Shown one piece after another: positions 40,485-52,138 of a DNA stretch of 64,000 bases. Every line of letters starts with the position of its first letter. Position 1 is the stretch's first letter. Source of the DNA: an uncultured Clostridia bacterium (GTDB lineage: Bacteria > Bacillota > Clostridia > TANB77 > CAG-508); contig CAPXSA010000002.1 in NCBI GenBank assembly GCA_948735595.1, positions 33,713 to 97,712 on the forward strand. Reading direction: 5' to 3'. The notes under the pieces were generated by a model. It was not told the DNA's origin. It made no database searches and worked only from the letters and a program-made list of their open reading frames with translations. The translations under genes and the position numbers were made by a program.

Positions 40485-40525
40485 GCTGATGTGGCGAAAT
40501 TGGTATACGCACTGGATTCAAAATC
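40485..40525 (+). pseudogene. 5' half of disrupted chromosomal tRNA-Leu(CAA) (acceptor 5' strand, D-arm, anticodon stem 5' strand and loop)
   Basis: GCTGATGTGGCGAAATTGGTATACGCACTGGATTCAAAATC then diverges; pairs perfectly with the 3' half at 52087..52138. Confidence 0.75.
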
Positions 40526-40664
40526 TAAATGGATTTTTAAATATGTAAATCTTAAATATATTGAAAAATAGTAATGTTTAGATATTTGCTAGTGCCGAAA
40601 TTAGTTCCAACATCTAACAAATATCTAACATAATTGTAAAACGCCTAATTTTTATAAAATATAT

Positions 40665-40747
40665 GTCGATGTGGCGAAATTGGTATACGCACAGGTCTCA
40701 AAAACCTGCGGGAAACCATGTGGGTTCGATTCCCACCATCGACACCA
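40665..40747 (+). tRNA. tRNA-Leu (anticodon CAA), element-borne replacement copy
   Basis: GTCGATGTGGCGAAATTGGTATACGCACAGGTCTCAAAAACCTGCGGGAAACCATGTGGGTTCGATTCCCACCATCGACACCA; long variable arm; acceptor and anticodon stems self-consistent but differ from the disrupted chromosomal gene. Confidence 0.85.
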
Positions 40748-40751
40748 TAAC

Positions 40752-42033
40752 TCAAATACCATTTGAAGATGAAGAGTTGCTTTCTTCATTTTCTTTCTTT
40801 TTATCTGTAAGTTTAAAAGTATATTCTAAAACACTAGCAGAAATTTTTTTAGAGTTACTATCTAAATGAGCATATAAGTTTGCAGTAGTAGAAAAATTAG
40901 AATGACCAAGCCACTCTTGAATCGATTTCATAGGAATATTTTTAGCAAGTAATAAACTAGCACAAGAATGTCTTAAATCGTGGAAACGAATATGCCTCAT
41001 ATTATTTTTATCAAGCAATATACTAAAATGTTGTGTAACATAGTCAGGTCTTACAATATTTCCATCAGGTTTAACAAAAACATAATTCAAATATTTTTTA
41101 TTATAACTATTACCAAAAGCTTTTTTGAAGGATTGTTGTTTTTCTTTTGCGTCTAAAAGCATATTTGCAATATCATCAAATAAAGGCAAAGTTCTATAAC
41201 TAGACTTGTTTTTTGTTCTATCTTTTCCTTCAATTTTTCTATTATTACCATCTGTATTTGTAATTGTAATAGTGTGTTTAATAGTAATTGTTTTATTTTC
41301 AAAATCAAAAGAATCCCATTGTAAGCCTAAAACTTCACTTCGTCTTAATCCATAAAAAGCAGTAATCAAAATAATAAGTTCTAGTGAGTCATTTTTAGAT
41401 ATTTCAAATAACTTATTTAATTCACTTTCATTATAGAAGCTATTAATGAATTGCCCGTTTTTTAGGTCTTTGTACTTTATCAGCAGGATTACTCACAATA
41501 ACATTCATTTTAAATGCATAATCTAAACATTTTCTTATAATAGCATGATGGTGTATTACTGTATTTGCAGTAAGATTATATTTTTCCATCAATTCATTAT
41601 AAAAATTTTGAATATGAATAGGCTCTAAATCTTTTAATTTTATAGGATGTTCTAAAAAATATCTCTTTATGTGATTATTAGCCTGTTGCCTATAAGAAGT
41701 AAAAGTTGAACTTTCTATTGTGTGTTGTACAATTTTTAGCCAATAAAAAAGATACTCTATAAATAGAATATCAGTTGTATTATTTGTATTTGAGTTTGTT
41801 TCTGCTTTATCTAATGTCTTTAGTTGTAATTCTTTTTCTAATTTTTCTCTTAATTGTTCTGCGACTACTAAAGCTTGTTTCTTATTACCTCGTTCTTTTA
41901 GTCCTGTGGAACGCCAAGGCAGATGTCTTTTTCCATTTTCATCATAATACTCTAAAACAGCTTGATAAATACCATTTCTAACTTGCAGACAACTTACAGA
42001 TACTTTGTTTACTTGTAAATTTTCTGTTACCAA
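40752..42033 (-). pseudogene. tyrosine recombinase/integrase, frameshift in an A6 run near 41405
   Basis: ORF 41443..42033 = N-terminal DNA-binding/core-binding domains ending ..KVQRPKKRAIH*; ORF 40752..41369 = catalytic domain (..AFYGLRRSEVLGL..HDLRHSCASLL..NLYAH) whose frame extends upstream as GQFINSFYNESELNKLF..; frames join at CCTAAAAAACGGG. Confidence 0.75.
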
Positions 42034-42103
42034 ATTTAACTCCTTTCCGATGTAACAGACTAAATTAATTTACTATTGATTTTTTCGTAGTAAATATAAT
42101 AGC

Positions 42104-42310
42104 CTAAACACTCTTTTTTACTAAATAATTTATAACGCAATGTTTAGGGATTTTATATTCTCTACCAACTTTTATAGATTGAATAGTCTTTTGCTTTACT
42201 AACCTATAAGCAAGAGTTATACCTATGCCTAGCATTTCTGCTAATTGTTTTACAGTTACTACATCTTTATATGCAGTAAACATTACTTTGTTTAAATCAG
42301 TATTTTCCAT
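42104..42310 (-). CDS. excisionase/Xis-family HTH DNA-binding protein
   Basis: 68 aa; ..VVTVKQLAEMLGIGITLAYRLVKQKTIQSIKVGREYKIPKHCV.. is a typical HTH_17 excisionase adjacent to int. Confidence 0.65.
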   Translation of the reverse strand: MENTDLNKVMFTAYKDVVTVKQLAEMLGIGITLAYRLVKQKTIQSIKVGREYKIPKHCVINYLVKKSV

Positions 42311-50398: not shown

Positions 50399-50419
50399 AA
50401 TAAAATTGCTCCTTTCAGC

Positions 50420-50470
50420 AAGTATATAAGAGAAGAAATCTAAACTTCTCTAACACACTAGAGGACTTTT
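50420..50470. other. candidate oriT of the MobV relaxase
   Basis: immediately upstream of mob; inverted repeat AAGAGAAG-N9-CTTCTCT followed by AACACAC, as in pMV158-type oriT hairpin plus nick region. Confidence 0.35.
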
Positions 50471-50955
50471 TTACAAAAGTACCTCGTGTGGCAGATAAAT
50501 CTGCATATGTATAAGAAGAAACCAGAAGGAGAGAGCGAAGAAAATTAGGTGCAATAATCCCAGTGTTAGAAAAAAGGATTATTACACCTAGTAACAAGAA
50601 ACCGTCAGTCAGTCACTTCGTTTCATAGGTAGTCTAGTAAGTAGAAAAACTACTATAATTGCTGACAATACAAATAATAATATATTTAATTATCAATGTG
50701 CATACTTATCCACACTTTTTACAATTATAAATCCACAGCCAAGCTTTGCCTCCCAAGAACTCTTTTATTATTGTGAGTCTATGGTTGTAAAATCTCACTC
50801 ACGCACTTTGTATAAATAGACCGTTTATACGAATACGAGCAAACTTTATAGCAACGGCTTGCCAAACCTAGCACTTTTATAGAGGTACTGCATTTCTCTG
50901 CATAATAAAAAGACCTTTGTATTTATATACAAATGGTCTTAATGTATCTTATAAT

Positions 50956-51852
50956 TTAAAGATTTCCATATACAAATCTAGTAGAATTTTTTATTTGTAA
51001 TGTATTCCAAAAGTTTATAGTATTTAATGATTCATCCTTTATTGTAAAACATTTATCAGCTTCAAGTGTTATTCCGCCTAAAAGATATTCATTAGGAAGA
51101 ATAGCTAAGTAGTAATTTGGAGTTAAAGGAAAACCAATAAAAACATCGTTTCTGCCAATTCCATTTTTGAGAAGTTTAGTTCTATAATTGTATCGAATGA
51201 CAGGATTATCACTAATTATAAATTTTCGAGTAGATAAATTGTGAAATAAAATCCATGTTTTTGATAAAATTTCTGTGGAGAAATTCTCTATTCTATCATT
51301 GTTAGTAACTATGCTAAGCATAAGATCCTTATAATATAAATCATCTTGATACTTTTTGATTACACTAGAAAATTTTTTTAGTTCATCTGAACTATTTAAT
51401 TCTCTATCTATAAAATTTAGAGTTTCTATATAATTATCTTTCATATTATATATCATATCTGGAACTCTACAAACTTGATTTACTAATATTCTTGCTAAAT
51501 CTTGCTTTAATGAACCTATACTTAATGGATGTTCTACTAAATTATTAAGTTTTGCATAGAAAATTACCTTATTTATAGTGCTTGAATAGATAGAGTCAAC
51601 TGAATAAGTATAGAAATCTTCATAACTTTTCTTTCCAAAGTTATCATTTGCATTGTAAATATTCTTTTCAAATCCTATATTTTTCTTTGTTGAAGTATAT
51701 ACAGTATTTAATTTTTTATCATATACAAAAATAGTACCATTTTTATTCTCAAAAAAGTGTAAATAAGATTGTGGAATAAAATGATTTTTTATAGTTTTAA
51801 TATCTCTACTAGGAATATATTTTTTTATTTTATTATTCATAACTATCACCAA
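50956..51852 (-). CDS. DUF4238 domain protein
   Basis: 298 aa; N-terminal ..IKNHFIPQSYLHFF.. matches the DUF4238 signature (H-x-IPQ-x-YL-x-F). Confidence 0.55.
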   Translation of the reverse strand: MVIVMNNKIKKYIPSRDIKTIKNHFIPQSYLHFFENKNGTIFVYDKKLNTVYTSTKKNIGFEKNIYNANDNFGKKSYEDFYTYSVDSIYSSTINKVIFYAKLNNLVEHPLSIGSLKQDLARILVNQVCRVPDMIYNMKDNYIETLNFIDRELNSSDELKKFSSVIKKYQDDLYYKDLMLSIVTNNDRIENFSTEILSKTWILFHNLSTRKFIISDNPVIRYNYRTKLLKNGIGRNDVFIGFPLTPNYYLAILPNEYLLGGITLEADKCFTIKDESLNTINFWNTLQIKNSTRFVYGNL

Positions 51853-52086
51853 TATGGTTATAGCATAAAATTAATCAATAGTAAACATTCTATTACATCT
51901 AACATTATTTATCACATCTAGCATAATATCTAACATTTTTACCAAATACTTGCAAAATGTAGAAGATTTATGTTATAGTTAAGCAAGTAAGAGAAACAAA
52001 GATAAGTGCTAGAAAATCCATAGTTTTGGACTATATAAAAAGTGTTATTTAATACTAAGTATTAATAAGTATAAAACACATTAAAA

Positions 52087-52138
52087 AATTCAAAATCCAG
52101 CGGGAAACCATGTGGGTTCGAGTCCCACCATCAGCACC
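52087..52138 (+). pseudogene. 3' half of disrupted chromosomal tRNA-Leu(CAA) (attR side)
   Basis: ATTCAAAATCCAGCGGGAAACCATGTGGGTTCGAGTCCCACCATCAGCACCA; acceptor 3' strand CATCAGC pairs with GCTGATG at 40485. Confidence 0.75.

Follow-up and report, generated by a model that had tools for sequence, protein, structure and literature searches.

A mobilizable element of gut Clostridia that very probably splits a host tRNA-Leu(CAA) gene and carries a replacement copy

The window analyzed in this study comprises 64,000 nt of contig CAPXSA010000002.1 (assembly GCA_948735595.1) from an uncultured Clostridia bacterium. Its segment 40526-52097 (11.57 kb, right repeat included) is very probably an integrative mobilizable element (IME) that was inserted into a host tRNA-Leu(CAA) gene and carries a replacement tRNA. 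The anatomy of the locus and the insertion point can be read directly in the window, and comparison with other loci revealed an empty site in a sister host, showed that the left element end and the complete tRNA gene are inserted DNA, and found the arrangement recurring across hosts. In the following, other loci are referred to by numbers with the prefix L. The features of the two junctions are listed below.

40443-40471, + strand: host promoter-like site (consensus scan; putative function)
40485-40525, + strand: 5' half of the split host tRNA-Leu(CAA), attL with host arm and core (ARAGORN after joining with 52098-52139)
40516-40525, + strand: left 10-bp direct repeat, ATTCAAAATC (found twice in the window)
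40526-40664, + strand: spacer S at the left element end, interpreted as attP P' arm (95-97% identity across host species)
40665-40747, + strand: complete element-borne tRNA-Leu(CAA), termed tRNA B (ARAGORN; Rfam RF00005, 62 bits)
40752-42033, - strand: tyrosine integrase (int), split by an extra C at 41457 (Pfam; three-frame translation; DNA alignment)
40765-40793, + strand: terminator-like hairpin and T run just 3' of tRNA B, overlapping the C-terminal tail of int on the other strand (consensus scan)
51895-51935, + strand: three arm-type repeats AYATCTARCA, right (P) arm (motif scan)
52088-52139, + strand: right repeat copy (52088-52097), then the 3' half of the split host tRNA through CCA, attR

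The left half (40485-40525, GCTGATGTGGCGAAATTGGTATACGCACTGGATTCAAAATC) comprises the acceptor 5' strand, the D arm, and the 5' strand and loop of the anticodon stem, and the right junction (52088-52139) reads ATTCAAAATCCAGCGGGAAACCATGTGGGTTCGAGTCCCACCATCAGCACCA with the CCA end at 52139. Joining of 40485-40525 and 52098-52139 with one copy of ATTCAAAATC between them resulted in an 83-nt tRNA-Leu(CAA) with all stems paired according to ARAGORN; in the unmodified window, no tRNA was predicted at the left or right junction. A scan of both strands of the 64 kb located ATTCAAAATC at 40516 and 52088 only. The common core is therefore short, consisting of the 10-bp repeat with the family-wide core TCAAAATC, and leaves no tRNA at attL or attR. 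An initial annotation of this DNA had proposed that the halves rejoin into a perfect tRNA-Leu(CAA), that a 10-bp repeat flanks the element, and that an intact, sequence-distinct tRNA-Leu(CAA) lies at 40665-40747 beside the integrase, all of which was borne out by ARAGORN, the repeat scan, and Rfam. Its coordinates were right for the left half, but each was one base too low for the right half.

Spacer S starts with TAAATGGATTTTT, and an inverted repeat AAAATC/GATTTT surrounds TAAATG at the transition from the core to S. Arm-type repeats were detected in S at 40610-40619 and 40621-40630, together with an inverted copy within 40578-40592. The motif AYATCTARCA had five matches in the 64 kb, two in S and three at the right end (150-190 bp inside the element), all lying at most 200 bp from the element ends; 1.05 matches would be expected by chance and none of 100 shuffles reached five. 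The element thus combines a tyrosine integrase with Phage_integrase and SAM-like domains with arm-type repeats found at both ends only. Since the integrase arm-type repeats occupy both attP arms, S belongs to the element and tRNA B lies inside it.

In regard to its sequence, tRNA B ends 4 nt short of the integrase stop codon and differs from the rejoined host gene at 10 positions, eight of which are located in stems and form four compensated base pairs. Because the stem differences are compensated, these are two self-consistent genes and neither is a scrambled copy. We also scanned 185,579 species genomes (one per species) with a degenerate exact-match pattern fitting both tRNAs, which detected the element-type tRNA only, at five loci; tRNA B was 100% identical in five other species of this one-genome-per-species set. 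Apart from tRNA and one sub-threshold match, Rfam at a permissive threshold revealed nothing in positions 39500-54000.

Both junctions were present in the window (11.57 kb), in L038, L039, L041, and L043 (9.24 kb), in L089 (about 8.7 kb), and in L048, a remnant of 2.4 kb. L089 and L048 share one host tRNA, and all rejoined host genes (3/3) were called tRNA-Leu(CAA). Contigs of the L089 host were gathered by a search with a flanking 775-aa protein. Ten of them (L098-L107) harbored, in the flanking context known from L089, an uninterrupted tRNA-Leu(CAA), identical to the rejoined halves at 83/83 positions, with a left flank differing at 1/80 upstream bases and nothing inserted in 7/10. The intact gene that the initial annotation had suggested looking for in related genomes thus exists in a sister host species, and attB lies inside a host tRNA-Leu(CAA) gene. 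This comparison of empty and occupied sites identifies S and the tRNA as inserted DNA.

Other layouts were observed as well. In L100, L102, and L103 (12397-14500), a complete host-type tRNA adjoins the remnant of an integrase in fusion with an SLFN_AlbA_2 domain, followed by the family right end and the 3' half repeat, with neither a 5' half nor S. A deletion with end points in the host half and in an identical element tRNA may have produced this layout. Moreover, tRNA B occurred without the element behind a host half and S, followed by a native-like downstream flank (L023, 925-1469), behind a host half and only 12 nt (L021, 7500-8000), and immediately after a host-type promoter, the half-gene being absent (L024, 1-400), and in L088 the half-gene and part of S in front of tRNA B were deleted. 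These four loci look like stages of a permanent replacement of the host tRNA; the contigs of the first three end 100-280 bp after the tRNA.

Altogether, 47 junction loci were compiled, comprising 19 host halves and 11 element tRNA types in 30 host/element combinations. At all of them (47/47), the host half ends at the same point, reading …TCAAAATC directly followed by TAAATGG…, and behind a conserved spacer with integrase arm-type repeats a complete cognate tRNA follows 127-140 nt after the core, as does the tRNA-Leu(CAA) at 40665-40747 in the window. In L022, L023, and L025, tRNA B is preceded by S at 95-97% identity, each time behind a different tRNA-Leu(CAA) 5' half. These halves all end with …CTCAAAATC directly before TAAATGGATTTTT, and the chromosome flanks showed no or only about 76% similarity to those of the window. 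Two integrase homologs (P0002 and P0004, 85-86% identity) and an intact 426-aa integrase found via a shared TnpV revealed the same layout, namely a host promoter and 5' half, S, and a complete tRNA-Leu(CAA) 4-8 nt from the int stop. In a metagenome scan with a junction 21-mer, 31 of 37 matches showed the succession of host half, S, and tRNA. The six other metagenome matches and five viral ones were rejected as chance matches lacking both a half-tRNA on the upstream side and a tRNA on the downstream side; 7 of these 11 share one upstream sequence. As far as can be judged from sequence comparison, breaking a tRNA gene and supplying another is a design shared throughout a widespread element family of mouse and human gut Clostridia. 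What had first been noted for the window, an insertion that breaks the anticodon loop, does not rebuild the tRNA, and brings a cognate one, was thereby found throughout the family.

More distant relatives were identified in three sequences from human faeces deposited as 'Bacteriophage sp.' (L108, L109, and L110; MT840019.1, MT836101.1, and MT836946.1), whose integrases are 46-50% identical and whose target is tRNA-Ser(CGA). L109 carries two stacked tRNA-Ser 5' halves, each ending with CTCGAAATC, followed by a complete tRNA-Ser(CGA) and int. In L108, the right end is joined to a tRNA-Ser 3' half, and L110 is possibly an attP form.

Annotation of the remaining element led to the following features.

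42104-42310, - strand: excisionase-type HTH_17 protein (Xis) (Pfam PF12728, 7.2e-10; beside int in all relatives examined)
42421-42867, - strand: small HTH protein of the core module, called as 142 aa, putative regulator (weak Sigma70_r4 and HTH matches; in all relatives)
43066-44019, + strand: conserved core-module protein, about 300 aa (weak C-terminal match to an HNH-like PHROG; in nearly all relatives)
43988-45094, + strand: cargo gene called as 352 aa, without a family
45119-46449, + strand: candidate defence pair PDC-M03, cargo (PADLOC 1.6e-26, 2.7e-65, and 7.2e-44; Pfam)
46430-47224, + strand: inositol-monophosphatase-family cargo protein (Pfam 3.2e-46)
47242-48474, + strand: HEPN/Toprim cargo protein (Pfam 2.6e-37)
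48523-48873, - strand: DUF6664 protein (Pfam 5e-13)
48873-49226, - strand: TnpV (Pfam 4.8e-36)
49223-50398, - strand: MobV-family (Mob_Pre) relaxase, mob (Pfam PF01076, 5e-51)
50448-50463, - strand: candidate oriT nick region CTCTAGTGTGTTAGAG (GTGTGT flanked by a 5-bp inverted repeat), 50 nt upstream of mob
50956-51852, - strand: DUF4238 protein, right-most element gene (Pfam 2.6e-29)

The core-module protein of about 300 aa belonged to no Pfam, NCBIfam, or PADLOC family, and the 352-aa cargo protein had no informative match in Pfam, NCBIfam, PADLOC, or PHROGs. In the PDC-M03 pair, PDC-M03A (HipA_C-like) is represented by pieces at 45119-45388 and 45348-46070, and PDC-M03B (HipA N-terminal-like) is located at 46060-46449. 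PDC-M03A (45119-46070) is thus split into pieces of 89 aa and 225/240 aa in different frames, whereas relatives encode one protein of 315 aa.

Pfam confirmed the Xis, the MobV relaxase, and the TnpV of the initial annotation (7.2e-10, 5e-51, and 4.8e-36, respectively). Genes of a candidate integration and excision module are present, namely int, though with a +1 frameshift, and Xis, and mobilization functions are indicated by Mob_Pre (5e-51) and by an oriT-like site assigned by motif likeness only. CTCTAGTGTGTTAGAG appears to resemble the pMV158-type nick sequence, TAGTGTGTTA, again a likeness of the motif only. No family of a conjugative type IV secretion pore or coupling protein was detected by Pfam in the open reading frames (ORFs) of the element, nor any phage structural, packaging, or lysis family by Pfam (all element ORFs) or PHROGs (nine element ORFs). 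The element is therefore not a temperate phage by content, carrying a MobV relaxase in place of phage families. Based on Mob_Pre, the oriT-like site, TnpV, Xis, and the lack of phage families, we classified it as an IME. A search of the plasmid database PLSDB with the mob-tnpV module resulted in short distant matches only and no close DNA relative. The clostridial mobilizable transposons Tn4451/Tn4453 combine TnpV with TnpZ/Mob_Pre, rely on TnpX, a large serine recombinase, and are not known to target tRNA genes. The window element is like them in its pair of TnpV and MobV-type relaxase with an oriT-like site upstream, but differs in its tyrosine integrase and its tRNA target.

For integration, we propose that the integrase recombines attP with the anticodon loop of a host tRNA-Leu(CAA) via a shared core of 8-10 bp, TCAAAATC. 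In attP, the right end …TTAAAA would be followed by the core TCAAAATC, by TAAATGGATTTT… (S with its arm sites), by the tRNA, and by int. Crossover would then place the host 5' half and S at attL, and the right end and the host 3' half at attR. Since the core in attP is followed by S, the P' arm, and not by a tRNA 3' half, neither junction would rebuild the gene. The host 5' half would stay behind its own promoter, the 3' half would be moved 11.6 kb away to attR, and the complete tRNA-Leu(CAA), placed behind S and in front of the int end and oriented as the host gene, would take over the reading of UUG, for which the host presumably needs it. Excision would be served by Xis, and mobilization by a conjugative element would be served by the MobV relaxase and oriT. 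The predicted attP junction of the excised circle is ACACATTAAAAAATTCAAAATCTAAATGGATTTTTAAATATG, and the attB predicted after excision is CGCACTGGATTCAAAATCCAGCGGG. The window element is presumably still mobile.

In regard to expression, transcription of tRNA B may start at the host tRNA promoter and read through the half-gene and S, or it may start at a weak promoter within S. A motif CTAGACA…TAATAT was found upstream of host halves in other loci, at a position equivalent to the host promoter-like site. The hairpin at 40765-40793 was the sole terminator-like site in 40200-40900, with none between the host promoter-like site and tRNA B, and element tRNAs are always oriented like the host gene. 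Given this shared orientation, the lack of a terminator-like site before tRNA B, and the lack of a scored promoter in S, we favor, as a guess, read-through from the host promoter.

Several points weigh against an inserted, replacement-carrying IME as drawn here. There was no empty site for the species of the window and no intact rejoined tRNA among the 185,579 species genomes; flank-gene look-ups for this species showed that every sufficiently long contig carries the element. Among the 37 metagenome and 5 viral matches to the junction 21-mer, there was no attP or circular junction, and the element right end stood upstream of the core in 0/37 metagenome matches. The consensus scan scored no clear sigma-70 promoter in S. 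Moreover, the integrase frameshift is real and the same in all copies of the strain. Finally, the need for tRNA B was deduced from the locus rather than from the whole genome, and tRNA-Leu(UAA) may also read UUG.

The frameshift bears on whether the window element is a fixed, immobile remnant with an integrase pseudogene, which we consider a serious possibility although the evidence inclines us to doubt it. The N-terminal frame of int (41443-42033) encodes the SAM-like domains, and the catalytic frame (40752-41369) matches Phage_integrase (1.9e-23). At the lesion, the sequence reads CCT AAA AAA C GGG CAA, where intact homologs encode RPKK[G/V/A/E]QF. A homopolymer sequencing error was ruled out, as intact homologs identify the change as a C inserted after the A6 run, not as an altered run length, and independent assemblies agree. 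A remnant would also fit the split cargo gene PDC-M03A, and in another species (L088/L089) int is clearly dead, with a 15-bp deletion leading to a stop and a further 96-bp deletion. Against this stands the identical +C allele in the window, L022, L025, and L069, i.e., in the context of four different host tRNAs. Furthermore, synonymous to non-synonymous differences downstream of the shift among the alleles of the window, L022, and L025 were 14:8, 9:3, and 13:6, the pairs not being independent; compared with 72% non-synonymous, the binomial p values ranged from 3e-4 to 1e-3. As read from these ratios, the downstream codons show the signature of purifying selection. Thus, the initial annotation correctly described a frameshifted integrase, but its suggestion that the element may be fixed is doubtful in view of the four host tRNAs and the purifying selection. 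Decay does happen in the element family, yet fixation is doubtful for the +C allele. The 90% cluster of the window integrase includes both intact and split forms among its 198 members, and 7,998 of 8,000 integrase-family candidates scored at E <= 1e-20.

The site itself offers a lead. AAA AAA CGG G (41454-41466, - strand) combines a shift-prone P-site codon with a rare A-site codon, CGG being the least used sense codon of the long ORFs in the window (1 in 11,906). The site is shared by four host contexts, and three of the alleles were the basis for the purifying selection seen in the downstream frame. The allele may therefore be expressed via +1 ribosomal frameshifting at AAA-CGG; a +1 shift at AAA-CGG-G would restore RPKKGQF in the peptide …VQRPKKGQFINSF…. 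Alternatives to recoding are help in trans from related elements or a spread of the lesion by recombination. To our knowledge, a +1 recoding signal has not been described for tyrosine integrases, and this int allele offers a testable case.

A second alternative accepts the insertion as described but denies that tRNA B is a needed replacement: UUG would be read via another tRNA-Leu(CAA) or tRNA-Leu(UAA), and the element tRNA would be kept as a decoy or anti-defence device, for codon supply, or as part of the attP architecture. Anti-defence roles of mobile tRNAs were indeed raised by the authors of PMC10865867. We regard this alternative as unlikely, since a complete cognate tRNA is kept in 47/47 junction loci, including the 2.4-kb remnant and copies with a dead int, the element anticodon always matches the split gene, and the relatives that split tRNA-Ser(CGA) carry tRNA-Ser(CGA). 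The stems of the element tRNAs also covary. Ten element tRNA types share one cloverleaf, and 14 of 24 pairs showed compensatory double changes; since pairing is kept by double changes, the element tRNAs evolve as working tRNAs. The exact core TCAAAATC is absent from 8 of 11 element tRNA types, which carry TCAAAAAC or TCAAAATG with compensating stem changes, and such core-free anticodon loops would guard the element tRNAs from being split in turn. That the element tRNA always avoids the target core proved only partly true, as 3 of the 11 types contain TCAAAATC. Some element tRNAs match the host 5' half of another locus, e.g., GCAGGTG…CAGGA, found as the host half of L046 and of L064; at the sequence level, this points to an exchange of genes between elements and hosts.

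Read as a classical tRNA island, the locus would have its host gene regenerated at attL (40665-40747) and a displaced 3' fragment at 52088-52139, and 40485-40525 would be an unrelated older scar. An island finder would come to this reading, as a complete tRNA stands next to int and the opposite element end carries an 88%-similar 3' fragment of 52 nt; a classical-looking layout is also known in one species (L100, L102, and L103). Nevertheless, we consider it very improbable. Base pairing (GCTGATG/CATCAGC and CTGGA/TCCAG) links the displaced 3' half to the upstream 5' half, not to the complete tRNA. From host to host this 5' half varies, whereas S and the complete tRNA move along with the element. 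The arm-type sites are part of S and thus precede the tRNA, and empty and occupied sites show that S and the tRNA were inserted. There is no regenerated hybrid tRNA either, as the core is followed by S and the complete tRNA lies 139 nt away with its own matching stems.

An assembly chimera can practically be dismissed: the source genomes are metagenome-assembled genomes (MAGs) and several contigs break near 53262, but contigs from different samples and assemblers span the left junction at 100% (L001, L003, and L004) or 99.95% (L002) and the right junction at 99.99-100% (L011, L013, and L037). Both junctions and the integrase frameshift were reproduced at 99.9-100% identity in other MAGs (GCA_948600675.1, GCA_965114875.1, GCA_948865565.1, and GCA_948893245.1) and in Logan contigs of other runs.

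The principle of combining a short core with an unrestored target tRNA and a phage-borne cognate tRNA was named tRNA-dependent lysogeny by Guerrero-Bustamante & Hatfull (mBio 2024, PMC10865867) for actinobacteriophages such as Fionnbharth, LeBron, and Gaia, where the phage tRNA was experimentally shown to be required. Gaia also targets tRNA-Leu-CAA with an 8-bp core and carries its tRNA downstream of int (PMC10865867). Like these phages, the window element has a tyrosine integrase with arm-type sites, an attB in a host tRNA, and a core in the range of about 8-17 bp that does not allow rebuilding. In contrast, its family consists of non-phage, mobilizable elements of 2.4-11.6 kb, with a MobV relaxase in the window, in low-GC gut Clostridia. 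Within the attP region, the tRNA always lies 127-140 nt from the core, element lineages have exchanged their tRNAs, and the requirement for the tRNA, experimental in actinobacteriophages, is deduced from sequence. Prophage Lj965 of Lactobacillus johnsonii, as summarized in PMC10865867, likewise has a tRNA not rebuilt at the junction and encodes a cognate tRNA; by this description, it is similar in its Firmicute host and different in being a prophage.

By comparison, tRNA-gene integration of mobilizable elements leaves the genes undisrupted according to reviews (PMC5704250, PMC5357655). NBU1 (tRNA-Leu 3' end), streptococcal tRNA-Leu elements, and the Islander model resemble the window in the tyrosine integrase, the tRNA target, the repeats, and int beside a complete tRNA. 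In classical islands, however, the repeat includes the gene end and nothing is disrupted (PMC5704250), whereas here the gene is broken and a whole second gene is supplied. Among the listed papers that use the term "tRNA-dependent lysogeny", no extension to a non-phage element was found. The mechanism is thus already known from phages, and its use by a non-phage mobilizable element, of which we found no description, appears to be new. The arrangement, called unusual in the initial annotation, is so for IMEs, but its principle was published for actinobacteriophages in 2024 (PMC10865867).

Taken together, these elements might anchor themselves by replacing an essential single-copy tRNA gene, a kind of addiction, and thereby move tRNA-Leu(CAA) between species, with relatives doing likewise with tRNA-Ser(CGA), the tRNA outlasting decay as the only copy, and the +C int being expressed via a +1 frameshift. 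We put forward this combination tentatively, as possible rather than probable. Breaking and replacing tRNA genes is in any case not confined to actinobacteriophages, and natural empty, occupied, and decayed states are available here. For annotation, island finders would shift the left border inward by about 180 bp and attribute the element tRNA to the host. The 11 element tRNA types in their 30 host/element combinations also concern tRNA gene turnover, and imprecise loss of the element would remove the only intact copy of tRNA-Leu(CAA) seen at the locus.

Some further observations concern neighboring genes. In L031 (3484-6831), L032 (1471-6766), and L036 (167-1489), related elements have phenylalanyl- and histidyl-tRNA synthetase genes next to their conserved core module; as no right junction was found in these three loci, the genes are either cargo or host chromosome. 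In the human-gut host of L088-L094 (700-2100), a group II intron reverse transcriptase (RVT_1 and GIIM) is located at or just outside the right end, intact in L089 and split in the other loci.

In the flanking chromosome of the window, a sigK/sigE-like sporulation sigma factor gene beside the split tRNA (39651-40356, - strand) is frameshifted, its N-terminal MFMLALSLASFIAFLQSAV… lying in a different frame than the 172-aa body; it was called as 172 aa in other assemblies, too. Between an MBL-fold gene and this sigma factor gene, 39082-39582 encodes a protein with a PemK/MazF-like toxin domain (weak Pfam match, 9.8e-05). The right flank (52140-53262) is richer in GC (0.37-0.38 versus about 0.28), several assemblies break at about 53262, and an ORF at 52354-52878 (- strand) has no family match. 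Rfam revealed nothing in 52140-53262; in a stretch of L023 homologous to this flank (76%), paired hairpin arms seem to co-vary.

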